DNA of 64,000 nt from a virus, in IMG/VR virus record IMGVR_UViG_3300020583_000224, positions 1 to 64,000 of that record, one strand, 5' to 3'. Each line of letters begins with the position of its first letter. Position 1 is the stretch's first letter. Below the pieces are notes generated by a model that saw only the letters and a program-made list of their open reading frames with translations, had not been told where the DNA came from and did not search any database. Positions 19 through 60,273 of this stretch are shown here, one piece after another. The position numbers and the translations under genes are program-made.

Positions 19-2025
19 ATGCCTTACCTCGCAGCGAATGTCAGCGTCATGGACTTCGGCGCCGACCCGACGGGCGTGGCCGACTCCACTTCCGCGTTCA
101 ACCAGGCGCTCGCCTACGTTGCAGGACTCGGCGGCGGCGTGGTGTCCGCACCGGAGGGCACATTCAAGATCACCCCGTCGGGGTCCCCGGCGGTGGGCGT
201 CTCGTTCATGGGCACCGGGTCCGCCGGGTACCAGAATGTCAGGCTGGTCGGCGCGGGCATGGAGGCGACAGTCTTAAAGAAGGCCGCCGCCGGCACGCTG
301 CTCCAGTTCTCCGGACCGTCGAGCAGCCCGAACACCGGGTCCACGCACACCCGGTTCTGCTCGGTGGAGTCCATCGGATTCGACGGCGGCACCACGTTCG
401 CCGGCGACGTCTTCCAGTGCTACTACGCAGACAACCTGCTGTTCCGTGACATCAACATCAACAACAACGCGGACATCATCCTCGACAGCGCCGAGTTCTG
501 GGACAGCAGGTTCTACAACGTCGTGTTCGGCGGTTCCGGCAGCACGACGGCGAACACGGACGCCCCGAACGTGTACCTGCGCTGCTCGGCCGCGAGCTCC
601 GGGTTCGGCAACTCGACCGGCACGACGAACATGCTGGTGTTCCAGGGCTGCCGCTGGGAGGCGTTCCTGTCCGGCGCCCTGAAGATCGCGCAGGGCCCCG
701 GGTCCAGCTCCGGCGTCAACTCGGTGTTCCTGACCGACAACAAGATGGAGACATCACAGGTCAACGGAAGCGGCACCGGCAACCAGGCCAGCCACATCTC
801 GGTCGACGCGAACGCCCGCGCCGTGTTCGTGCGCGGCCTGTACGCCTACTCCGGCGCCTTCTACACCGGGTACTCGACCGCGCAGGACGTGATCTCCTGG
901 TCGGCGCAGGACTCCGCCCTGACCGACGTGCTGATCTCCGACGGCGGCTCGGCGACGATCGCCAACGGCGTGACGGTCAACTCGACGGTGGCGAGCCAGA
1001 ACGCCGTGGTGCGCAACGTCTACGGCACCTACACCACGAACCCGACCGGCAAGCACGTCAACATCGGCACCTCGACCGGCTCCTTCGTCGTCGATAACTG
1101 CCACTCGTCCGCCACCGACCCGAGCATCCTGAACCAGATGACCGAGTGGATCACGGCGTCGTCGGGCACGAACACGTTCGGTTCGTCGGTCGCCGGGGAC
1201 TCGGTCCACCGGTTCGTCGCCAACGCCAACGGCGGGTTCTCCTGGGGCGGCGGCGCGCTCGCCGCGGACGTCGTCATGGTGCGCGCCTTGGCGGGCGTCC
1301 TGGGCTTGACCACGGGCAGCCTGCTGATCGGAGCGAGCGACCTGGGCGACGGCGGCGCCGGGGTGCTGAAGCTCGCGAACGCGGCCACGCTGCCGACGGC
1401 GAACCCGACCGGCGGCGCCGTCGTATACGCGCGCAACGGCGGCCTGTGGGACCGCGACCCGAACGGCGTGATCTCCGCGATGGTCTCGCCGTCGGAGTTC
1501 TCCACGTCCCCCACCGGCTGTCTCGGCGAGACGTTCCCGCGCTGCCTCGGGTCGAACGCGACGGCAACGCAGGCCATCGGCGCGACCACGGGCACCGTGT
1601 ACATGATGGGGATCTGGCTGCCCGCCGGCCTCACGATCACGAACATGAACTGGATCACGGGTTCGACGGCGGCGGTGACGCCGGCGCACTGGTGGCTGGG
1701 GATCGCGAACTCGGCCGGGCTGCAGCAGGCGGCCACCGCCGACCAGTTGACTGCCGCGATCGCCGCTAACAGTTTGATCACCAAGGCTCTGACGGCGACG
1801 TACACGACGACAGCCACCGGGCTCTACTACCTGCTGCTGTCGGTGACGGCCGCCACGAACCCGACCGCGACCGGCCTGCCGGTGCCGATCTCCCAGATGA
1901 ACCTGGCGACGCCGGTGCTCGCGGGAGTGTCGGCCGCTACGCAGTCGGCGCCGGGCACGAACGGCACCACGAGTTATACGGCCCCTGCGTCCGCCGGCGG
2001 CATCCCCTATGTGTACCTGACCTGA
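19..2025 (+). CDS. tailspike/minor tail protein with pectate-lyase-like beta-helix
   Basis: N-terminal SVMDFGADPTGVADSTSAFNQAL (Pectate_lyase_3-like), beta-helix-type repeats, position among tail genes. Confidence 0.75.
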   Translation: MPYLAANVSVMDFGADPTGVADSTSAFNQALAYVAGLGGGVVSAPEGTFKITPSGSPAVGVSFMGTGSAGYQNVRLVGAGMEATVLKKAAAGTLLQFSGPSSSPNTGSTHTRFCSVESIGFDGGTTFAGDVFQCYYADNLLFRDININNNADIILDSAEFWDSRFYNVVFGGSGSTTANTDAPNVYLRCSAASSGFGNSTGTTNMLVFQGCRWEAFLSGALKIAQGPGSSSGVNSVFLTDNKMETSQVNGSGTGNQASHISVDANARAVFVRGLYAYSGAFYTGYSTAQDVISWSAQDSALTDVLISDGGSATIANGVTVNSTVASQNAVVRNVYGTYTTNPTGKHVNIGTSTGSFVVDNCHSSATDPSILNQMTEWITASSGTNTFGSSVAGDSVHRFVANANGGFSWGGGALAADVVMVRALAGVLGLTTGSLLIGASDLGDGGAGVLKLANAATLPTANPTGGAVVYARNGGLWDRDPNGVISAMVSPSEFSTSPTGCLGETFPRCLGSNATATQAIGATTGTVYMMGIWLPAGLTITNMNWITGSTAAVTPAHWWLGIANSAGLQQAATADQLTAAIAANSLITKALTATYTTTATGLYYLLLSVTAATNPTATGLPVPISQMNLATPVLAGVSAATQSAPGTNGTTSYTAPASAGGIPYVYLT

Positions 2026-33241: not shown

Positions 33242-33639
33242 AGCAGATCACGCAAGGCATCAAGGCGCTGTGCCCGGCGCAGAAGTGGGACGAGTACTCG
33301 CCCGACGTGTGGCTGCAAGTGCTGCGCCGCGTGTCGTTCAAGGACGCGTCGCTCGCTTTGGAGCGGCTCGGCGCCAGGCAGCCTTGGATCGGCGCGTCGG
33401 ACATCGCGACCGAGGTGAGGGCGATCCGGCGGGCCCGTGCGGAACGCTTCACGCCGATGCCGAACGACGTCGAGGGTGTCGCGTTCGAGGACGAGTACCG
33501 GGTGCTGCGTGAGGCGGTCGCGGACGGCCGCATGACGCAGGCGGATGTCGCCGCCTATAACCGGTGGGGCGGCTCGCTGTTCCTTGAGCAGCAGCAGCAC
33601 GCGCTCACTGCCGCATCGGTGCGGGGTGAGATCGCGTGA
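33223..33639 (+). CDS. helicase loader-like protein
   Basis: lies between initiator and DnaB; W...L...QPWIGASDI. Confidence 0.6.
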   Translation: MGPDELEQITQGIKALCPAQKWDEYSPDVWLQVLRRVSFKDASLALERLGARQPWIGASDIATEVRAIRRARAERFTPMPNDVEGVAFEDEYRVLREAVADGRMTQADVAAYNRWGGSLFLEQQQHALTAASVRGEIA

Positions 33640-34979
33640 ACGACTACGAGCGCGTCCCGCCGCAGGACCCGAACGCGGAGATGGCGGTCCTCGGCGGCGT
33701 ACTGCTGTCGAAGGCCGCGCTCGAGGAAGTCACGGAGATCCTCGACGACGGCTCGGACTTCTACCTGCCGAAGCACCAGAACCTTTACGAGGCGGCTCTC
33801 GCCGTCTACGGCCGGAGCGAGCCCGCGGACGCGGTCACGGTTGCGCGCGAGATGGACCGGCGCGGCGAACTCGTGCGCGCTGGCGGCCCGGGCTACCTGC
33901 ACGAACTGATGGAGTCGGTCCCGAACGCGGCCAGTGCCGGCTACTACGCGGAGATCGTGCACGAGAAGGCGGTGCTGCGGCGGGTCATCCAGGCCGGCAC
34001 CCGGGTCGCACAGATGGGCTACGAGACCGACATCGACGACGTCGGCGAGATCGTCGACCGCGCCCAGGCTGAAGTGTTCGCTCTCTCCCGGGACCGCGAC
34101 AAGCAGCCCGAGTCGTCGAACAGCGACGAACTGGACGCGATGCTCGAGGAGATCGAGCACCCGACCGCGGAAGGCATGCTGACGGGTCTCGCGGACCTGG
34201 ACGCGCTCACGCACGGCCTGCACTCCGGGCAGATGATCGTGGTCGCGGCCAGGCCCGCCCTTGGCAAATCGACCCTGTCAACAGACTGGCATCGGCAGGC
34301 GTCAGTCAAGCGCGGCGAGCACTCCATCCTGTTCTCCCTCGAAATGGGCAAGCGGGAAATCCTCAAGCGCATCCTGTCCGCCGAAGCCCGCATCCCCCTG
34401 CACCACCTGAGCGGCGGCCAGATGGCCGAGCGCGACTGGGACCGCGTCAACGAGCATCGCGGCCGGATCGACTCGGCGCCGCTGCACATCATCGACGACG
34501 CGTACACGCTCAACGACATCCGCGTCAGGGCCCGCAGTATCGCCCGCAAGCACCCCGTGAAGCTGATCACCGTCGACTACCTGCAGCTGATCAGCGGCGC
34601 GAGCAGCAAGCGCAACGGCACCCGCCAAGAGGAGGTCTCTGAGACCTCCCGCAGCCTGAAGCTCCTCGCGAAGGAACTCGGCGTCCCGATCGTCGCCGTC
34701 GCGCAGCTCAACCGGGGACCCGAGCAGCGCACCGACAAGAAGCCGGTCATGTCCGACCTGCGCGAGTCAGGGTCACTGGAGCAGGACGCCGACGTCGTGA
34801 TCCTGATCCACCGCGAAGACGCCCACGAGAAGGAAGGCCCGCGCAGCGGTGAGGCCGACCTGATCGTCGCGAAGCATCGCAACGGGCCGACCGCGATCGT
34901 GGCCGTCGCCTTCCAAGGGCACTATGCCCGCTTCGTGGACCTGGCCAGGCAGTGGTCACCCCACGACGCAGCCCGCTGA
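33636..34979 (+). CDS. dnaB: replicative DNA helicase
   Basis: AARPALGKS, FSLEM, DYLQL, QLNR, DLRESGSLEQDAD, KHRNG. Confidence 0.95.
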   Translation: MNDYERVPPQDPNAEMAVLGGVLLSKAALEEVTEILDDGSDFYLPKHQNLYEAALAVYGRSEPADAVTVAREMDRRGELVRAGGPGYLHELMESVPNAASAGYYAEIVHEKAVLRRVIQAGTRVAQMGYETDIDDVGEIVDRAQAEVFALSRDRDKQPESSNSDELDAMLEEIEHPTAEGMLTGLADLDALTHGLHSGQMIVVAARPALGKSTLSTDWHRQASVKRGEHSILFSLEMGKREILKRILSAEARIPLHHLSGGQMAERDWDRVNEHRGRIDSAPLHIIDDAYTLNDIRVRARSIARKHPVKLITVDYLQLISGASSKRNGTRQEEVSETSRSLKLLAKELGVPIVAVAQLNRGPEQRTDKKPVMSDLRESGSLEQDADVVILIHREDAHEKEGPRSGEADLIVAKHRNGPTAIVAVAFQGHYARFVDLARQWSPHDAAR

Positions 34980-49846: not shown

Positions 49847-52282
49847 CGCCGTCTCCAGATGATGTCCGCGGGTCCGACGACGGACCCGACGCAGTACTTC
49901 GTTGCCGCCCGGCGCCGACGCATCGACCGGTTGACCTCTTGCAGCAGTTCGTCGGCCTGCTGGATCTTCTCGTAGGTCTGCTTCGTGTGCCCGAGTTCGC
50001 GCAGGATCGACCGGTAGTTGTCGGGCAGGTCGGCCCACGGGGTGGCGGGCAGCGAGCGGCGGGTCATCCGCGCATCCATGGCGGACAGGTGTGCGGACGC
50101 CCGTGGATGATCGTGCCGTCCACCTTGCGGCAGCCGTCCAAGAACCGGCCCGGCTTCGGCTGCGGCGTGGGTGTCAGTGCCGTGGCGTACCCTTCGGCCG
50201 CCCTGGCGAGGTTCGCGTTGATCACACGCACGACCTCCTCGCCGCCGGGAAGCGCTTCAAGCACGTCCATTAAGCCTTCGACGTGCGCCGGGACCGGGTC
50301 GCCGGGCAGCGCCCCTAGCACGCCGATCGGCCACGTGGCGGGGATCGTGGCCTCGCCGTACAGCATGAGGTCGGTTTGCGCGTCCGCGATGGCGCGCTGC
50401 ACGGGGGTCATGCCAGCACTCAGTTTCGCGCTCAGTTCGGCCAGTGTCGGCCCCGGTTTCGCATGCTGCCCGGCTGCGGCGATCCGTGCGTCCCGCTGCG
50501 TGTCGGGATGCTCGCGGAGCATCTGGCGGCCCTTGTCGGCGACTTCGAGGTCGCCGCGGCAGCCGCATCCGCAGCCGCTGATCACGCGTCGCCTGTCGAG
50601 CCGCCGGATCTTCGCGAGGATCAGATTCTCCGGGATCTGCGCATAGTCGTCGGGCGTCCCGCCGATGCGGTTCCAGTCGCTGGCGAGGTAGGCGGCCACG
50701 TCCCAGCGGGTGGCCCAGTAGGCGGGTTCGCCGGTTGAGGTGGGGCGGGCGTGGCGGCAGGCTTCGATGGCTTCAAGGAACAGCAGGTCGGGGATGTCGG
50801 AGCACTTGCGGTAGACCGGCACGGTGCCGACTGCGGGCTTCCACTGGGTTTCCAGGTGCCAGATCCACCGCTGGTGTTGCGGGGCGTCGTCGAGCGCGAC
50901 CCGGATGATGAAGACATCGGCGTGCGGGAGGATGCCGCGCACGTATCCTTCGATCGGCTTGCTGGTGGGGAGTATGGATGCGACGCGCTGGCCGACGGTG
51001 AATCTCGGTTCAGGCATCGCGGTCTCCTGGGTGGGCGTGTTCGCAGCCCGGGTCCTGGCAGGCGTGGAGGCCGTGCGCGGGCGCGTAGACCATGGGGAGC
51101 CCGTCGGCGGGACACGCGCAGGCCTCGTCGGCCGGTTCGACGCTCCAGCCGTCGGCAGTGTGGACCGGGGCGTAGCGTCCCCGCTCGGTGGCGGTGAACG
51201 GTTCGGCAAGCGGGAAGCGGTGTTCGCGGTCAGGCATTGAGTCCCCAGAGTGGTGAGTAGGTTGTGCGTTGGGCGATCAGCCCGCTGCGGTAGTACGCGG
51301 CGAAGCTGTCCACGACCGGCGGCGGCTTGAGCGTCTCGGGCATGTCTCGGAGCACCGCAGCCAGCGTCTCGCTGAGCACCTCGACGTCTTCCGTGGTGCC
51401 GTCGTCGTACACGCGCCGCAGGTGCCGCGCGGGAACGTCGTCGTCCTCGATGACGGGAATGCCGAGCAGTGGCGGCGGTTCCCCCGGCTCACGCTTGTTC
51501 GGCTGCAGCTTCAGGGTCAGGTACTGCAGCACGGTCGCGTCGCAGCGCAACTCGCGCAGGAACGGGCCGTGCTCCTCACGCATGCGGTCCATGGCGGCCT
51601 GGAGGTCGAGGACGTTCTGCCAGACGTCGCCAGGGGCTGGGTCAGTCATCGTCTTCGCCCTCCGCCTCGTCGAGGAACGGCCCTTCCGCAGTCTCGACGA
51701 TGATGTTCAACAACGGGCCCTCGTTCGGGTGCGGCTCACCGTACGGCCACGCGACCGAGCCGTACGACATGACGGTCCACGACCGTGCGATCACGACGTA
51801 GTTGCCGGTCAGGTCTTCCTCGTTCGGCGCGTGCTGATGGTTGAGGTAGATCAGGTCTCCGACGACGGGAGGGTGCGGCGTGGCAAGTCGCCCAGGATCC
51901 CATCCGCCGACCCAGACCATGTCGTAGCGGTAGGTCGGGGCGTCGGTGACTTTCGTTCGGCGATAGAAGCCGCACCGGACTTCGGCGGGGGCGGTCTTGC
52001 TCATGCGCTGTCGCCGCCGTTCTCGGCCGGGCATCCGAGCCAGGGGCAGTGCACCAGCTTCAGTTCGATGTGCGTCGGCCCGGTCGCGGGGGACGTCGGA
52101 TGGAAGTAAGCGGACGTGTCGCACCTGGCGCTCTCCAGGCCATACCAATGGCCGTTGAGTGTGACGCAGTTGCCTGCGGTCAGGCCGGTGAGGTCGATGT
52201 CGTGGTGAGCGCCCAGGTGCTCGGCGGCGATGGCGTGCGGTGGGGGCATCGTGGTTTCGGGCACGGGTCCAGTGTCCACCAA
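49843..52282 (-). other. six hypothetical ORFs (49843-50067, 50064-51017, 51010-51237, 51230-51649, 51642-52004, 52001-52282)
   Basis: overlap-coupled leftward operon. Confidence 0.55.
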
Positions 52283-52357
52283 ATGGTCCTACTGGCATGC
52301 CTTTTGCGGCCACGCCGTGGCCTGCGGTTTTCCAGCAACCTTTAACAGGCCGCCGTC

Positions 52358-52497
52358 GAATTCAAGGTTGGGCGCGTTTCCTTGAATTCCGCAGGTCGGG
52401 CCGCTGCCGCCTGACGGTTCCTGACGAAAGCTGACGGTCTCGGACAGCGCCGGACAGTCTCGGACACCCGTCCGGGTTTCCTGCTCACGGACAGTCT
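52358..52497. repeat. inverted repeat plus a 10-bp-phased hexamer array
   Basis: GAATTCAAGG/CCTTGAATTC; CTGACG at 52411/21/31 and CGGACA at 52441/51/61. Confidence 0.75.
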
Positions 52498-52667
52498 GGC
52501 GGCGCGCTGCGGGTAGCGTGGAAGCGTTCCGGTCGTCCTTCTCGGGCACGCGCTGGAGCAGGTCGAGGTTGCCTGGTACTCCGACACGCACGCAAGCGGT
52601 CCCTCCGGCAAGAGGGGCCGCTTCGCCGTACCGGACAACCGTGCGTGGTGCGACGTCTTAGAGGGGT

Positions 52668-52877
52668 ATGGACGAACTTCGCACGCAGTTCCACGACGCT
52701 CGCCGCGCCATGATCGACGCGTTCATCGATCTTCTTACGCTCGCGCATGAGGCAGGCGTCGCCTGGGACGTCCAATCGCAGATCCAAGGCCAGTTCTGGG
52801 ACGGCAACGTCGAACTCAAGGACGCATTCGAGGCGACCAACTTCGCCGCCAAGTTTGGGCTCTGGCGACGGCCCTAA
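52668..52877 (+). CDS. small hypothetical protein
   Basis: GAGGGG RBS. Confidence 0.55.
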   Translation: MDELRTQFHDARRAMIDAFIDLLTLAHEAGVAWDVQSQIQGQFWDGNVELKDAFEATNFAAKFGLWRRP

Positions 52878-53386
52878 GCCGCGATTCGCTGCAACACGAC
52901 GGTCGGCGGGTCCTCGGCATGGCTGGCCACTGACGCGGCGCCGATCGACAGCGACGCCCACACCCGCTTGCCGTGACCGACGGGTTCCGTACCCCAATCG
53001 GCTGCGAGCGCGTCCACGAGCAGCAGGCCGCGACCGCCCAGTTCGTCGTCGGTGGCTTCGCGCTGCTCGGGCATGTGCTCGCCTCCGTCCTCGACCTCGA
53101 TGAACAGCAGTCCGCCATCCGCCTCACGGTCCGTGTAGATGGCGAGCAGCGCGGGCTCGTCACCGTGCTCCACAGCGTTCGTCACCAGTTCGGACATGAT
53201 GATGTCCGCCGAGTCGGCGAGATACCCCAAGCCCCATTCGGCGAGCGCGTCGTCAAGGATCCGACGGGCCTGCCGCGGCGCCGTCAACGTCAACGCCAGG
53301 CCGGTCGTGCGGCGTTCGCTGATCGTGCCGTGCTCGCCCGTGATGATGTGCATCCCGGCGTTCGGCGAGGAGTAGTAGCGGCTCAC
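52874..53386 (-). CDS. HATPase_c (anti-sigma/RsbW-like) ATP-binding protein
   Basis: SELVTNAVEH, IEVED, GRGLLLVDALA..WG, GKRVW. Confidence 0.9.
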   Translation of the reverse strand: MSRYYSSPNAGMHIITGEHGTISERRTTGLALTLTAPRQARRILDDALAEWGLGYLADSADIIMSELVTNAVEHGDEPALLAIYTDREADGGLLFIEVEDGGEHMPEQREATDDELGGRGLLLVDALAADWGTEPVGHGKRVWASLSIGAASVASHAEDPPTVVLQRIAA

Positions 53387-53637
53387 CGGGTCGCCGCCGC
53401 GAGTAACTCGGTGACACGTGCGATGTCGTCTCGGACAAGCGGCGCGACCAGGCCGCCCGTGGACGGGTCCGCGTCGGCGAGGAGCACGGTCTGCAACGCC
53501 GCGAGGGCGGTGCACGCTATTTCGCGGCAGAGTTCCGCAGTGTCGCTGCCGAGGCTGAACGTACGCAGGCGTTCGGATGCGTCGGCCAGGTCCCGCCGCA
53601 GGTTCGTGTAGCCGGGCGGGGCTTGGGTCGCGCGCAT
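53383..53637 (-). CDS. hypothetical protein
   Basis: coupled to the HATPase gene. Confidence 0.55.
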   Translation of the reverse strand: MRATQAPPGYTNLRRDLADASERLRTFSLGSDTAELCREIACTALAALQTVLLADADPSTGGLVAPLVRDDIARVTELLAAATR

Positions 53638-53844
53638 GGCGTCTCGTTTCGGCTGGCTGCTGTTGTTCCTTCGAGGAAACCGCTTGATCGGTGATGCGGC
53701 AATCGTTGGAGAAGCCCGCGCGTGTGTGAATCAGGGTGTGCGAATCGGCGCCCTGTGTATCGATGCAGTGAATCGGCTGTCGACGTGCAGGTCGGGCGCT
53801 TAGACTCCCGTGCATAAGGCCCCGGCTGAGGGAGTGTCAGCGTC

Positions 53845-55206
53845 ATGGCGCACAGCACGGCACCGAACGAGAAGCTAGCGGCGGTCCTCGTCGAAACGGG
53901 GTTCAGCGCGGCCGGTCTCGCCCGGCGCGTGAAGGATCTCGCCAAGCACGAAGGCAAGCCGGCGCCGCATGCCGACCACACCTCCGTCGCCCGCTGGCTC
54001 GCCGGGCAGCGCCCCCGTGCAGCTACGGCCTCTCTGATCGCCGGGGTGTTCACGCAGGCGCTCGGCCGCCGCATCACCGAAACCGACCTCGGATTCGCCG
54101 CGGCGCCGCCGGACCCGGACGCGGCACTCACCTACCAACCCGACCTCGCGGCGACCCTGGCGGCGAGCACCGACCTGACCGGGAGCGACACGCACGTGCA
54201 CCGACGTAGGTTCCTGACTGCCGCTGCGGCGACCGCGACCGTGTTCGCGGTGCCCGCGATCCGCTACCTGACGGCTCCCGACGCGCCGCCGCCCGTGCAG
54301 GCGGCCGGGCGCACGGTGGGCATGGAGGAGGCCGCGGCGGTACGTGTCGTCACCAACACTTTCCGCAAGCTCGACAACCAGTTCGGCGGCGCCCACGGCC
54401 GCACCTCGATCGTCGCCTACCTGCGGGACGAGGCGATGCCGCTGCTCAAGCACGGCTCGTATACGGCAGTCGTGGGGGCGGCCCTGTTCAGCGCCGTGTC
54501 GGAACTGATGCTGCTCGCCGGGTGGATGGCGTTCGACCTCGAACAGCATCCGGTGGCGATGCGCTATCTGATCCAGGCGCTCAAGCTGTCCGAGGTCGCG
54601 GGGGACAGACCGCTCGGCGCGGAGATCCTGAACGGCATGTCGCATCAGGCCGCGTACCTCCGCCAAGGCGCGGAGGCGGTCGATATGGCGCGTGCGGCGG
54701 CGCAGGTGGCACGCAGGGCCGGGCAGCCTGTCCTGGTGGCTGAGTCGCTCGCGTCGGAGGCTGGCGGGCATGCTCTGGCCGCCGCGCCCCGCTCGGCTGC
54801 GGTGGCGCTCCTCGGCGCGGAGGATGCGCTCGCCAAGGCGGACCGGGTGCAGGCGCCGGACTGGCTCGGGTTCTTCGACGAGAAGTACCTGCACGCCCGC
54901 ACCGGCCGCGTCCTGCTCGACGCCAAAGACCCGAAGGCCGCAGCGAACGCGATGACTGCGGCGCTCGTGATGAAACCCGGCTTCGACCGGGGCAAGGTGT
55001 TCAACCTCGCGGTGCTCGCCCAAGCCCAGGTGCACGCCGGGGACGTGGATCGCGGCTGCGTGACCGCGGCAACTGCAGCGAAGGCTGCTGCGACGGTGAA
55101 CTCGAAGCGCGCTGTGCGCGAGCTCGCGGCCGTCGCCCGGAGCCTCGAGCCGTACCGGTCCTCGGAGCCGGCACGGAACGCGCTCGCGCTGCTGCCCGCT
55201 ATTTGA
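53845..55206 (+). CDS. HTH plus TPR-like regulator (NsdA-like actinomycete family)
   Basis: PNEKLAAVL...SVARWLAGQRP; LDNQFGG; LAGWMAFD helical repeats. Confidence 0.8.
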   Translation: MAHSTAPNEKLAAVLVETGFSAAGLARRVKDLAKHEGKPAPHADHTSVARWLAGQRPRAATASLIAGVFTQALGRRITETDLGFAAAPPDPDAALTYQPDLAATLAASTDLTGSDTHVHRRRFLTAAAATATVFAVPAIRYLTAPDAPPPVQAAGRTVGMEEAAAVRVVTNTFRKLDNQFGGAHGRTSIVAYLRDEAMPLLKHGSYTAVVGAALFSAVSELMLLAGWMAFDLEQHPVAMRYLIQALKLSEVAGDRPLGAEILNGMSHQAAYLRQGAEAVDMARAAAQVARRAGQPVLVAESLASEAGGHALAAAPRSAAVALLGAEDALAKADRVQAPDWLGFFDEKYLHARTGRVLLDAKDPKAAANAMTAALVMKPGFDRGKVFNLAVLAQAQVHAGDVDRGCVTAATAAKAAATVNSKRAVRELAAVARSLEPYRSSEPARNALALLPAI

Positions 55207-55753
55207 CCCCCAGCCGGTCGCGCGCGGCCAGTAGGCCGACGACTGAGGCCGCCCCGAGCACGGTGCCCAGGATGAGCGCGGGAACGTCGGAGAGCGGCAT
55301 CCAGCGGGTTTCCTGCGTCTCGTTGATGTCGAGCACGTCCGAGACCTTCACGGGGCCCTGGCCGAGGTAGACGTGGTTGAGCGCATCGGCGTTCCCGGTC
55401 ATCGGCTGGAACGAGCAGAGGCACTCGACGCGGCTGGGCCGCCAGCCGGTTTCTTCCTCGGCTTCGCGAGCGGCGCACTCGGCGGGGTCTTCGCCTTCGT
55501 CCACATATCCACCGGGCAGTTCCCAGACCCACAGGCTGGGGATGAACCTATGGCGCCGGAGCATCAGCGCTCGCTGCTGGTCGTCCACGAGGACGCACAT
55601 CGCGGCCGGCGCGACACGCAGCACGGCCTGTTCGAACTCGACGCCGTCCGGCAACGTCACGTGGGCGATCGACAGGGCGGTGCGCTTCGTGGTCGCGAGG
55701 GTCGGCAGGTCGAGGGGGCGTTCTTCGACGGTCCAGCGGGTGTCGTTGGTCAC
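55199..55753 (-). CDS. NUDIX hydrolase (ADP-ribose pyrophosphatase-like)
   Basis: WELPGGYVDEGEDPAECAAREAEEETG. Confidence 0.9.
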   Translation of the reverse strand: MTNDTRWTVEERPLDLPTLATTKRTALSIAHVTLPDGVEFEQAVLRVAPAAMCVLVDDQQRALMLRRHRFIPSLWVWELPGGYVDEGEDPAECAAREAEEETGWRPSRVECLCSFQPMTGNADALNHVYLGQGPVKVSDVLDINETQETRWMPLSDVPALILGTVLGAASVVGLLAARDRLGVK

Positions 55754-55786
55754 CCGCCGAACCTTAGCGAACCGCGCCAGGCGCGA

Positions 55787-55936
55787 TCAGAGGGACGAGT
55801 TGAACGCGGCCACGACGACCTTGGCACCGGTCGGCCGCAGTCGGTCGAGGATCCCGGGCGCGGCGACGCGGCCGAGCGGGGCAGTACGCACGTCGGTGAG
55901 CGTGGATGTCATGACGGTGTCGGCGGGCTCGTTCAC
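55787..55936 (-). CDS. FxSxx-COOH (FxsA-like) RiPP precursor peptide, 49 aa
   Basis: AGGAGA RBS, GTG start, LTDVRTAPL leader, ends VAAFNSSL-stop. Confidence 0.75.
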   Translation of the reverse strand: MNEPADTVMTSTLTDVRTAPLGRVAAPGILDRLRPTGAKVVVAAFNSSL

Positions 55937-55999
55937 GGGGTCTCCTGGCTGGTTCGGGCCGGCGCTGCTTAACGCCAAGGATACGGCCATCGGTGCTGG

Positions 56000-56428
56000 T
56001 TACGTGCGGTTTCTGGTCTGCCACCCCTCGTCGCGGGTCCAGACGGCGCGCTTGCCATACGGCGCCAGCAGTTGCTCCAGGATGTCATCCGCGACCTGCC
56101 TAGCGTCCGGGGAATAGACGCCGGAATCGATCTTCTGCCATAGCGCGAGCAGCGCACGCTTGGCCGCGACGTCGGCGAACACGAACCCAGGATCGTTCGC
56201 AACGACATGGTTGGCGATCGCATCGCCGAGGAAGCCATGCGGGCCGACGGCGAGAGTCGCCTCCTCGCAGGAGACGTACTCGCCGTCGACGCTGCGCCAG
56301 TGCGTACCGTCCACGTCGTGGCGGGGCCTGGCGTCGGCCGCAGCGGCTACAGCGAGCAGTTGGCGGTCGTCCAGGCGCGCGGTGATGAACGCGACGATGC
56401 TGGGTGGTTCGACGGGAGAAGTCGTCAT
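56000..56428 (-). CDS. DUF6221-family protein (second copy)
   Basis: FITARLDD...NDPGFVFADVAAKR. Confidence 0.7.
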   Translation of the reverse strand: MTTSPVEPPSIVAFITARLDDRQLLAVAAAADARPRHDVDGTHWRSVDGEYVSCEEATLAVGPHGFLGDAIANHVVANDPGFVFADVAAKRALLALWQKIDSGVYSPDARQVADDILEQLLAPYGKRAVWTRDEGWQTRNRT

Positions 56429-59400
56429 GGCCGCAGTGTCCCACCGTGCGCGTCCAGCCTGTCCGCGATAGCCCGCGCGGTCCGCAGGTCGATGCAGACG
56501 GTCGTGTCGTCCCGGGCGCCGCGGCACTTCTCCTGCACGTACGCGACGAACGCGGCGACATCGTCCTCCTCGCGGCAGTCGCATTCGGGATGGTTGCAGT
56601 ACCAGCCGCCAGCGGTGTCGCGTTCTTCGACGGTCTCGAGGATGAGCGGCTGCGTGACGAAACTGACCGTCTGCGCCTCAACCAGTGCGGCGGCCACGGC
56701 GTTCATCGGGCACGCCTCGGTGCAGTCGCTCTCGAGGTGCGGTTCCTGGCCGATCGCGAAATGGTAGAGGCCCGTGACGGGCGCGGTGAAGCGCTCAGGC
56801 ATCGCCGGTCCTTTGCGGTTCGCTGTCGGGGTACGCGAGGGCGGCCAGCCAGTCGTCGGCCATCAGCCCCGCATGGAGCCCGGCTTCGGGCGTCGGTCGC
56901 CCAGCGTCCGGGCCGTACGTGGCGATCAGGTCGACGATCGGGCCCGTGTCGAACAGCGGGTGGTCCGCGGGGATCGGGCCGATAGCTACCGGGCGGTAAG
57001 GCGACGCGTCGTCAGGCACGGGGCGACTCGATTCTGAGAGTCAGGGATTCCTGGCGTTCGAACGCTTCGCGTGCCCAGTGTCCCCGCTCGCGTTCGCCGC
57101 GGCGCGCTTCGATCAGTTCTTGCACGTACTCCTCGACACGATGGGCGCCGTGGATGTGCTCGTGGATCTCGCCGCCCGGGTGCCCGAACGCTTCGATGGC
57201 GATATCCGGGTAGCGCGAGAACGCGGCCCTGCACTCGCTCTCGGTGCCCTCGTAGGTCCAGACGCATGTCCGGAGCGGGCACTGCCATTGGAACCGGTCG
57301 TCAGGCATCAGCGTGCTCCTTCGCCGCGGTCTCGGACTCGTGGCACGGCGCGCAGATCGGCATTGACCGCGTCCCGCCCGACGGCAGCTTGTAGACGAGC
57401 CGCGTCGTGGCGCGGGCCTGGCAGCGGTGATCAGGATCGGCGCCGCAGATATGGGCGCACGTGTCGCCCTGGCTCGGCCAGTTCGCGTCCGATTCGCTGA
57501 GCGGGTCGCCCCAATCCAGTTGGCCTACGCTCGCGCCGTATTCCGCCCGAGACGGCGACGGGTACACCGCCCTGTCCATGCTGGCGATAATGCCGTCGAA
57601 TCCGGGGCGCCGGTTCGCTTCGTCGAGGATGCCCTCCATCGCGGCATAGTCGGCGAACGACACGCCCGCGGTCGCTGTGCGCAGCCACAAGATCGCGGCC
57701 TCGACGTGTGCCGAAGCCAGCGCCCGCAACTCCTCGTATCGGCGCGACGGCACGAACTCGGTCCGCCACCCGCACGGGCAATGACCGCGGATCTCCCGGG
57801 TGGCCTCGTCCATCTGCATGTGGTCCGCGCATTGGAGCGCTGGCCCGCTGCCGGTTTCGAGGACCCGGATCGGCTGGTCGTCTGCAGGGTCGGCTGGCCA
57901 GAGGATCGTGCCTGCGGGCATCAGGTCGGGGTGTTCGAGCAGCGCGGCGCGGACATGACACCGCAGCAGTATTTCGTCGGGTTCGGCGCCCTCGGACCAG
58001 CCTATGCGGCGCCTGAAGTGCGCGGGCTCGCCCCTGCTGCGTGTCGGCAGGGTGATGCCGTACTCGGTTATCCGGTACAGGATCGACTGGAGGGGCGTCC
58101 AATTGCCGAGGTCTAGCGGCGATATGCAGACGACGGCCTCGAGCGGCTTCGCGACGTGCCAGGCGGTGGCGAGCTCGTCCGTGTAGATGACCTGCCCGGC
58201 GGAAGGTCCGTCGACCAGGATCACGGGAACGCCGACCGGCCTAGGCATGTCCGGCCGCCCTCGGGTGATCCGGATGCAGCCGAGGCCAATACTGCGACAC
58301 GGGGATGCCGTGGCCGCGCAGGTGCGACTGGGTCAGCGTCATCACCTCGGCGACCGTGCCGCCCATGTGCAGGCCGCCGCACGAGCAGTCGATGCCGAAC
58401 AGCACCGGCTCGCTGGACGCGAGGCTGCGGAAGTCGAGGTGCGGGGTGACGGTGAGCGTGTGGTTGCGGCACTCACGGCGGATCGCGTCTTCATCGGTGA
58501 GCAGGTCAGGCATCGTCACTCCGTCGGCGGCGGTAGGAGTTGGTCCAGCGTGGGCACCACGATCGGCTCGACCCGCCATCCTTCGGCCGCGAGCAGGTCG
58601 AGGAACAGGCCCGCGCCGTGATCGCTGGAGATGACGCCGTGAAGGCGCCGGTTCCAATCGTCCAGCACGCACGCGACCGTGTACGCGGGGCCGTCGAGTT
58701 CCGCAAGGTCGCTGCGACGGAGGGCGTCGAGGTCTTCGTGCTCGTCCTCACTCATTGCCGCCGCCTTCCGTTCCTGCGCTGTCGAGCGTGTCGTTGCTGA
58801 TCCAGCTATACCCGCAACGACCGCAGCCCCGGTGGAAGTGATTCCGATCCTGCCCGGAGCACATTCCATGACGGAGGCTGTAGCCGCCGTCACACCAGCG
58901 CATCGTCGTGTCGGACTCGCCGCACTTCGGGCACGCCAGGATCGGCACGCGCGGCGGGGTGTCCTGTGGTTCTTGGGTCGCCATGCCGAGTCCGGGTCGG
59001 AGCAGCACTTCGGGGACAGACAGTTCGCTTACCGTCGTGTCGCCAGACACGTAGCCGCCCTTGGTCTTACCGTCGCCCATCGCCGTCTCCGATCGGTTCG
59101 AGTTCGATGGTCGCCTCAAGGGGCCTGTCCGACCAGGCGGCGAGAAGGGTGTGCAGAACAGCACCCCGTTCGGCCTCCCGGGTCTCTCCGTCCACGTAGT
59201 TGCCTGTGGCGTCGTACCACTTCACGACCGCTCGCACTCGGGCGTCGCGCGTATCGCCACCCCCGCGCTTGACCACGGCCGTGCGGCCTGTGGCCAGGTC
59301 GAGGACGCCGATGTTGTCTGCGCTGACCGCGAAAGCCGTGCTGGGCGGTACGCGGTTGTCCTCGTGGATCAGGCGCGCCCATTCGGGACCAGCCTCGGCC

Positions 59401-60273
59401 GCGAGCGCTTCCTCGGCGAGTACGCATGCGGCTTCGTCGCGCAGTTCGTTGTACCGGTTGAGGATGTCGGCGAGGCAGCGCCGCACTGACCCGGTCGCGG
59501 AGTGCACGATCCCGGCCTGCTCGTCGAGGATCGCGGCGAGTTCGGGCGGGACGGTTTCAGCAGTGAAGGGCACGCGTCCAGTATGAGGCTCGCGGCGGTC
59601 GGGCAATCAGCCATTCGTCGCAGTGTCGTCGGCCGCGAGCCCGGCGAGCAGTTCGTACGTCCAGCACGGCCAGCCGCCCCACTTCTCGCCGTCTTCGGCC
59701 TGGAACTCGCACGCTTCGCAGTAGACGCCGGGCATGCGGATCGCCCAACCGCCGCCCGAATCGAGCCGGGGTTCGTGGCCGCCCAGCACTTCGTATGCGG
59801 GCTCGTTCGCGCGGTAGTGCTCGCGCAGCCGCACCCACTCGGCGTGGGCTTGCTCGAACTTGACCTTGAGTACGGCGAGCCGTTCGAGGCGCTGCTGCTC
59901 CAGGCGCTGGCGCCGACGCCACGATTCGCGGCCCTGCTCGGTGAGGTGATCGGGCGGCTCGCTGGCCGTGGCCGACTCAGTCACCGGCCTGCTCGCACTC
60001 GGGCACCGACGCGTGGTGATACAGCCGTTCCCCGGCCGCGCCGAGCATGCTGGCGAGGTCGCGTGCGGACGCGCCCGGGTTGGCGTTGAACACGTTGGTC
60101 GCGAACGCTGCCGCGCGCAGCAGCACCGCGCCGATCTGCTCGGCGGGGATGCCTTCGAGGTCGCGGCGGAAATCACCGGCGTTCTGCTTGGCTTGCTTGC
60201 GCATCGCCGGGGTCGCGGCGCCCAAGCGCTGGCGGATCGCGGCGGCGTACTGGTCGAGTTCTGGGCTGTTCAC
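56425..60273 (-). other. ten hypothetical ORFs (56425-56802, 56795-57019, 57012-57308, 57301-58248, 58241-58513, 58516-58755, 58748-59080, 59067-59606, 59607-59984, 59977-60273)
   Basis: overlap-coupled; several are Cys/His-rich. Confidence 0.55.

Follow-up and report, generated by a model that had tools for sequence, protein, structure and literature searches.

The stretch of viral DNA analyzed here (the window, 64,000 nucleotides [nt]) comprises bases 1 to 64000 of the 122,712-base IMG/VR record IMGVR_UViG_3300020583_000224 and contains, on its minus strand, an open reading frame (ORF) of 49 amino acids (aa) at positions 55787 to 55936. Judged by its homologues, this ORF is a member by descent of a divergent subfamily of FxsA precursor peptides, i.e., peptides with an F-x-S-x-x-COOH end, which the curated profile TIGR04268 under-scores. 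The gene is a true orphan, and the phage carries one part of the Fxs system rather than the system. What is established is homology, orphan status, mobility of the surrounding cassette, recurrence of such genes in phages, and how widespread FxsB is in the candidate host order. The explanation that we favor overall, and to which we give an even chance of being correct, is that the gene encodes an intact phage-borne FxsA precursor that is matured by the FxsB enzyme of the host and steers the host's FxsC/FxsT module.

The phage peptide is a homologue of cellular FxsA precursors

FxsB introduces a cyclophane cross-link at F-x-S, and the associated HExxH protein is a β-hydroxylase, according to NCBIfam descriptions. 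A first-pass annotation, made from the DNA letters without database searches, had described a 49-aa ORF with a strong ribosome-binding site and the core VAAFNSSL as an orphan FxSxx-COOH precursor, and the ORF, its GTG start, and its ribosome-binding site were all found as described (Table 1). The complete translation of the ORF is VNEPADTVMTSTLTDVRTAPLGRVAAPGILDRLRPTGAKVVVAAFNSSL; it consists of a leader (VMTSTLTDVRTAPLGRV..LDRLRP) and a core, KVVVAAFNSSL, with the C terminus VAAFNSSL. It is thus a short peptide ending in FNSSL-stop, and no hydrophobic N-terminal signal sequence could be read from it. In the same frame, alternative starts would give peptides of 67 aa (ATG at 55990) or 41 aa (ATG at 55912). 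The 49-aa form is the version called by gene callers in the public protein collection (P0002), its start position is shared by seven relatives of 48 to 52 aa, and its Shine-Dalgarno sequence is kept in the copy on metagenome contig L003 (CCAGGAGAC..GTG). The motif F-x-S-x-x-stop is not rare, as it ends 5 of the 1947 stop-to-stop frames of at least 30 aa in the whole record; the bare C-terminal motif is therefore insufficient, and the ORF is regarded as more than chance because homologues exist. A chance ORF was excluded by these homologues together with the G+C content at the three codon positions, which over the 67-aa frame is 0.66/0.57/0.85, like that of the other genes of the phage.

In tblastn searches, the phage peptide matched 11 cellular peptides in 10 loci with identities of 46.9 to 81.4% and E values of 4e-8 to 7e-20, all of them preceding FxsB or a gene read as FxsB, which bears out the proposed assignment to the FxsA-type precursors. 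The genome and metagenome scans gave 8 loci, of which L005 duplicates L002 and L009 duplicates L008. At the strong cellular loci, the next gene downstream is always an ORF of about 800 aa, which is truncated in L006 and L007, where the contigs end. This downstream gene was identified as FxsB by hidden Markov model (HMM) searches in L002, L004, and L008 (TIGR04269, 522 to 527 bits at a cut-off of 370; TIGR04267, 161 to 164 bits) and by tblastn in L027 to L031; in L006 and L007, the reading as FxsB comes only from the N-terminal CxxxCxxC motif (FRQFV.KVHSRCDLACDHCYMYEA). In L002, FxsB is followed by an AAC(3)-like protein, FxsC (NF040588, 157.5 bits; TIGR04276, 133.6 bits), and a KGGVGR-ATPase/FxSxx_TPR protein (686 bits), and this gene order is repeated in L027 to L031 as far as the contigs extend. 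The AAC(3)-like N-acetyltransferase gene between fxsB and fxsC (L002 10737-11522) occupies the same position in L027 to L032 and is missing from L034. Locus L004 has two tandem precursor genes 5′ of FxsB (320-472 and 1007-1156), with the core AAFNASL in one and AAFNSSL in the other. By homology to peptides encoded upstream of FxsB, the phage peptide falls within the wider FxsA family. Its sole organism-labelled cellular homologue lies in an Actinospica metagenome-assembled genome (MAG). Among 401 sampled genomes of the order of this MAG, a set that includes the unpublished genome G422 here and in the FxsB counts below, 10 matched the phage peptide at an E value of ≤0.001, six of them strongly; beyond these counts, nothing depends on G422.

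The HMM check proposed in the first-pass annotation gave no match above the curated cut-off. The 49-aa form scored 17.7 bits with TIGR04268 (E value 0.0032), below the cut-off of 28; the match was limited to profile positions 23 to 44, corresponding to the last 20 residues of the peptide, and in a six-frame search of the record the ORF scored 12.6 bits. Two cellular peptides encoded next to FxsB were tested and likewise stayed below the cut-off, with 17.4 and 16.4 bits. As FxsB-adjacent peptides score equally low, TIGR04268 evidently fails to reach this subfamily, and the low score appears to be a property of the subfamily and not of the phage copy alone. The C termini of 7 of the 11 FxsB-adjacent peptides (L002, L007, L008, and L028 to L031) read FNASL, with the serine of FxSxx replaced by alanine. 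To judge from these C termini, the name-giving serine is dispensable in the subfamily, and the third ring residue can be alanine.

Conservation of the core and a putative orphan clade

The core KVVVAAFNSSL is identical in the phage peptide and the peptides of L002 and L027, and in an alignment of eight sequences (A1; the phage peptide plus seven others, 67 to 80% identical) the tail ..AKVxVAAFN is invariant. The ratio of nonsynonymous to synonymous substitution rates (dN/dS) between the phage gene and cellular copies ranges from 0.26 to 0.68. Within the last 13 codons, the phage and L003 copies differ by two synonymous and no nonsynonymous changes.

Two leader positions separate the phage copy from its cellular relatives. 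All 11 FxsB-adjacent peptides carry the motif DVRQ and a leucine further downstream in the leader, whereas seven members, namely, the phage copy, L003, P0003, P0004, P0006, P0008, and P0009, carry DVR-T/D/S and a valine (GR-V) in place of the leucine; P0007 is of the cellular type at both positions. This pattern suggests that an orphan clade evolved apart from the cellular genes; the genomic context is known for two of the seven members, and relatedness inflates such counts.

The phage carries the precursor without the other Fxs genes

The record is classified as linear in IMG/VR, with a CheckV completeness estimate of 100%. That the gene is encoded by a phage, as stated in the first-pass annotation, is borne out by genes for a major capsid protein, tape measure, minor tail proteins, a tail-spike-like protein, an HNH endonuclease, an integrase, and DnaB. 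The capsid protein is 39 to 43% identical to the annotated capsids of Arthrobacter phages Mufasa8 and Sonali; relatives of its gene with 65 to 78% identity occur in 21 genome contigs, 17 of which are labelled Streptomyces, Kitasatospora, Streptacidiphilus, or Catenulispora, and in 71 IMG/VR records, several of them 86 to 134 kb long with terminal repeats. Tail genes are located at both ends of the record, with the tail-spike-like gene at window positions 19 to 2025 on the plus strand and the minor tail and tape measure genes at G000 113736-122589, while the integrase gene is internal (10.4 to 11.9 kb); because of this arrangement, we infer a permuted whole phage genome without host flanks. In the first ORFs of the record, the third-position G+C content is unusually high (0.94) and antisense shadow ORFs are numerous. 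The phage has two genes for DnaB-like helicases (phrog_19), at window positions 33636 to 34979 on the plus strand and at G000 71947-73608 on the minus strand (E values of 1e-98 and 6e-33). The phage is an uncultured temperate siphovirus of approximately 123 kb, presumably of a soil actinomycete, and is related to prophages found in Streptomyces, Kitasatospora, Streptacidiphilus, and Catenulispora. Two soil-metagenome DNA runs contain the full stretch and may be where it came from, and four others contain small shares of it; there is no RNA run among the sequencing runs listed as containing it.

No radical S-adenosylmethionine (SAM), HEXXH, or TIR gene had been noticed in the window, and this holds for the whole 122,712-base record, which gave 0 matches to TIGR04269 (FxsB), PF04055 (Radical_SAM), TIGR04267 (HExxH), NF040588 (FxsC_Nterm), NF040586 (FxSxx_TPR), and PF13676 (TIR_2); as a positive control, NF040588 gave two matches in genome G001. 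With 0 matches to TIGR04269 and PF04055, an FxsB gene elsewhere in the phage is ruled out, and the designation of the peptide gene as an orphan stands. Against the GenBank phage collection, the peptide gave chance-level matches only (E values of at least 1), and blastn of positions 52001 to 60000 gave no match. A scan of IMG/VR with the A1 patterns found no other viral copy of the subfamily, and comparison of positions 53845 to 58248 with five large related phages gave a single 46-nt match.

Candidate orphan FxSxx-COOH ORFs recur in other phages and a prophage

Of the 71 related viral records, 50 were searched with TIGR04268, and 12 of these had matches below the threshold; among the 17 loci matched, 5 were inspected, namely, the three reaching the end of the profile and two others. 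Candidate orphan FxSxx-COOH ORFs were found in 3 of the 50 records, G781, G787, and G801, with the C termini VSAFSSSI, VAAFQSAI, and VAAFASSV, respectively, and none of the three records contains FxsB. A frame in L131 that lies off the HMM match was counted as chance. Two further viral records, L153 and L156, contain relatives of two of these three peptides, ending in VPVAAFQSAL and EVAAFGSSV. The L153 and G801 peptides had no match in the GenBank phage collection, and 8-mer pattern scans of genome contigs revealed no cellular relatives of the G787 and G781 peptides.

In addition, a prophage region of genome G256, recognizable by genes for minor tail proteins, an endolysin, and a DNA invertase, contains a 46-aa orphan ORF ending in VAAFNSSV (L033 8037-8177). 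This genome has its own fxsA-B-C-T locus (L034) on the same contig, approximately 2.5 Mb from the prophage ORF; the peptide linked to FxsB in that locus and the prophage copy share 44% identity. Orphan FxSxx-COOH ORFs thus appear to recur, as candidates, in five other viral records and one prophage.

The peptide gene lies on a mobile cassette

Contig L003 holds the closest copy with known context, encoding a peptide that is 78% identical to that of the phage. A blastn comparison of L003 with the whole phage record gave a single match of 234 nt with 83.8% identity (L003 594-827), flanked by unrelated DNA on both sides, and the proteins encoded by 15 neighboring genes of the window had no relative in L002 to L009 (tblastn, 1e-3). 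By this comparison, the peptide gene moves as a 234-bp cassette (Table 1). The upstream part of the cassette that is conserved with L003 (55937 to 56013) overlaps the end of the DUF6221 gene; searches of this part revealed neither a promoter nor an RNA family nor a stable fold. A scan of positions 55100 to 56600 revealed no sigma-70-like promoter and one terminator-like site, which lies on the plus strand inside the NUDIX gene. An RNA element was also considered and rejected, as Rfam gave 0 matches (55600 to 56200) and the fold of the cassette, with a z-score of 0.21, was no better than that of shuffled sequences.

Table 1. Positions of the peptide gene, its cassette, and neighboring genes in the window
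Feature	Position	Strand	Details
FxsA-type precursor ORF, 49 aa, orphan	55787..55936	minus	GTG start (55936), TGA stop (55787)
Shine-Dalgarno sequence AGGAGA	55941..55946 (55946-55941)	minus	4 nt 5′ of GTG
234-bp mobile cassette	55781..56013	minus	About 77 nt upstream, Shine-Dalgarno sequence, ORF, and 6 nt past the stop; sole stretch shared with metagenome contig L003
NUDIX hydrolase	55199..55753	minus	33 nt downstream of the peptide gene; PF00293, 81.3 bits; context only
NsdA-family TPR-like regulator	53845..55206	plus	NF053720, 378.7 bits (cut-off 75); convergent with the NUDIX gene, 3′ ends overlapping by 8 nt; context only
DUF6221 protein	56000..56428	minus	Upstream neighbor; PF19730, 49.2 bits; stop inside the conserved upstream part of the cassette

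Ten neighboring ORFs searched against Pfam gave 0 families. The closest solved relatives of the NUDIX protein are ADP-ribose pyrophosphatases (8wv3, E value 1.3e-15; 9jax; 1mk1); its gene lies outside the cassette shared with L003. The protein could remove NAD-derived products of a TIR enzyme and would suit a system centered on a TIR NADase; its tie to the peptide is putative. A distant NUDIX relative (24% identity) is encoded approximately 6 kb from the FxsA-like ORF in phage G787.

The first-pass annotation had named TPR genes among the usual companions of FxSxx-COOH peptides; the NsdA-family regulator, a TPR-like protein, lies two genes away, and no evidence was found that links it to the peptide. 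A different NsdA-family gene directly follows the peptide gene of L003 (L003 1004-2296, 84.6 bits), and the two regulators had no mutual tblastn match at 1e-3. The closest named relatives of the window gene are in Actinocrinis MAGs (51 to 53% identity). Peptide P0009 and the regulator homologue P0013 each come from a 3515-base contig, possibly one and the same. A complex prediction for the regulator (A3) and the peptide (A1) gave a score of 0.00, which was counted neither for nor against binding.

Proposed role of the phage peptide and alternatives

As the phage lacks a maturase, the peptide would be modified only by the FxsB-HExxH enzyme of a host, and because cellular substrates have matching leader motifs and a matching C-terminal core, its likeliest fate is to be processed by host FxsB. 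The phage peptide would then be recognized and processed like the host's own, giving the same or nearly the same product. On the host side, FxsB passes the cut-off in 238 of the 401 sampled genomes of the candidate host order, i.e., that of the Actinospica homologue, and in 12 of the 21 genomes with a related prophage capsid gene. In a preprint (10.64898/2026.10.19.760177), FxsC is predicted to be an active NAD+-degrading TIR protein and FxsT a ParA-like switch with an inactive TIR domain; together, they are predicted to form an abortive-infection system that is enriched in multicellular bacteria, and the FxsAB peptide is proposed as an antiviral molecule or alarm signal. Under the favored explanation, the phage would supply the peptide to steer this TIR-ParA module, most likely by sustaining the supply of peptide while gene expression in the host breaks down, which would leave the module in its uninfected state. 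A fuller version holds that actinomycete phages repeatedly capture the Fxs precursor, that the peptide, matured by the host radical-SAM enzyme, serves as an “all is well” ligand and keeps the FxsC/FxsT suicide module off during infection, and that in this phage the NUDIX hydrolase is a second arm removing the NAD-derived product of the TIR enzyme; this version as a whole is tentative, and we regard it as possible rather than probable.

Several observations weigh against the favored explanation. FxsB is not enriched in genomes with related prophages (12/21 versus 238/401) and is common only, and the match between the phage peptide and host FxsB would hang on the candidate host assignment. Because its leader differs at two positions from that of all 11 cellular copies, the phage peptide could be recognized by FxsB less well or in another way. 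Over the whole ORF, dN/dS between the phage and L003 copies is 0.90, a value calculated from small counts (6.5 synonymous and 14.5 nonsynonymous changes). The other phage peptides were assigned from sub-threshold scores (G787, 18.2 bits over the full profile; G801, 14.4 bits; G781, none) and the C-terminal motif. The immune role of FxsC and FxsT is computational only, and the two proteins are called functionally uncharacterized in the preprint (10.64898/2026.10.19.760177). Finally, silencing and triggering of the module would look alike at the level of sequence.

The strongest of the alternatives is lysogenic conversion, in which a moron expressed from the prophage raises or primes the Fxs defense or alarm of the host against competing phages, to the benefit of the lysogen. 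The phage is temperate, as indicated by its integrase, and the self-contained 234-bp cassette with its approximately 77 nt of conserved upstream sequence is moron-like; since the core is identical to host cores, the product would be native, and G256 has a prophage copy alongside an fxs locus of the host. The proposal of the peptide as an antiviral molecule or alarm signal (10.64898/2026.10.19.760177) would also fit. However, no promoter was recognized upstream of the peptide gene, and the gene lies in a same-strand block of genes without assigned function rather than beside the integrase or a repressor. Sequence cannot separate lysogenic conversion from counter-defense; we consider the former unlikely, although it is the least unlikely of the alternatives.

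Less probable still is that the peptide is a dead-end decoy, i.e., a poor substrate that binds FxsB or another Fxs protein via its leader, titrates the enzyme, and keeps the host peptide from being matured. All seven members of the phage/orphan clade replace the glutamine of DVRQ and carry valine for the cellular leucine, but these clade-specific changes may simply reflect shared descent, and the reactive core AAFNSSL and the residues preceding it are unchanged, although a pure inhibitor would not need them. The conserved leader and identical core, as far as they can be read from the alignments, favor a processed substrate over such a decoy. To a similarly low degree, the gene could be a passenger acquired from a host fxs locus and functionless in the phage: neighboring genes are not conserved between copies, dN/dS relative to L003 is near 1 over the whole ORF, and the subfamily was not found in other IMG/VR records. 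On the other hand, the frame, Shine-Dalgarno sequence, and core are intact, the orphan clade of seven has diverged from the cellular copies and yet its tail is invariant, and ORFs of the FxSxx-COOH type, different from this one, are found again in five other viral records and one prophage, which would be unexpected for a neutral hitchhiker.

TPR domains often bind C-terminal peptides, and the neighboring NsdA-family regulator, the different NsdA-family gene directly after the L003 peptide, and a 393-aa XRE helix-turn-helix (HTH) protein two genes from the G781 peptide could point to a phage-internal, arbitrium/RRNPP-like switch with the peptide as ligand of an HTH/TPR-like regulator and with no relation to host Fxs; we judge this very improbable, as the stretch that L003 has in common with the window runs no further than 6 nt past the peptide stop and the two regulators do not match each other by tblastn at 1e-3, so that the pairing was not inherited as a unit, the window regulator is convergent with a NUDIX gene in between, the peptide lacks a signal sequence, no such regulator was seen beside the G787 or G801 peptides, and NsdA-family genes are presumably very common in these genomes.

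Relation to known systems and implications

Among known systems, the phage peptide is closest to the FxsA/FxsB system (TIGR04268, TIGR04269; SjiA family NF040585), whose precursors it resembles in size, leader-core layout, and F-x-S-x-x-COOH end. It differs in being phage-borne, in the absence of FxsB, HExxH, FxsC, and FxSxx-TPR genes from its replicon, and at two leader positions, and it does not lie next to FxsB as members of the wider FxsA family do. Phage antitoxin mimics that act against toxin-antitoxin abortive infection supply a copy of a labile host component. The proposed logic is shared, in that a small phage gene would replace a short-lived host factor whose loss triggers suicide; a phage FxsA-type mimic would, however, need modification by a host enzyme before acting, and no such case was found in our literature searches. 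Arbitrium/RRNPP systems are phage peptide-receptor pairs and likewise involve a small gene for a phage peptide close to an HTH/TPR-like regulator, whereas the peptide described here has no signal peptide and no co-inherited regulator and is homologous to the precursor of a RiPP, a peptide that is made on the ribosome and modified after translation.

Cellular relatives of the phage peptide head the same gene set as that of the TIR-ParA apoptosis system, i.e., FxsB-HExxH, AAC(3)-like, FxsC, and ParA-like/TPR proteins, as described in the preprint (10.64898/2026.10.19.760177); the phage has the peptide only and neither FxsC nor FxsT, whose joint presence defines that system. The available main text of the preprint (10.64898/2026.10.19.760177) does not contain the terms “mimic,” “Nudix,” “counter-defense,” or “anti-defense,” and the passages on FxsA and FxsC consulted in it are silent on phage-borne copies. 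Minviopeptin, an ADP-ribosylated triceptide (PMC12912966), combines a three-residue cyclophane with NAD-derived chemistry, and the peptide gene in the window has an ADP-ribose-pyrophosphatase-like NUDIX gene as a neighbor; the precursor family and enzymes of minviopeptin are different, and “Fxs,” “TIR,” “Nudix,” and “phage” do not occur in the available text of PMC12912966, so that this parallel is a lead only. Phage-borne FxsA genes are described in none of the papers brought up by our literature searches; papers on FxsB-type biochemistry were outside the literature searched.

Filamentous actinomycetes very commonly carry the Fxs gene set, and a phage with the precursor only offers a simple handle on the biological role of this set. 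If host FxsB matures the phage peptide and the outcome of infection changes, Fxs would be part of the conflict between phages and their hosts, the direction in which the peptide acts would become known, and ribosomal peptides that need a tailoring enzyme of the host would constitute a new class of viral factors. Should the reading as an “all is well” ligand be true, a viral anti-defense factor would be a RiPP precursor that depends on a host maturase. For genome miners, these findings are a warning against taking every orphan RiPP precursor in a prophage for a dead remnant.

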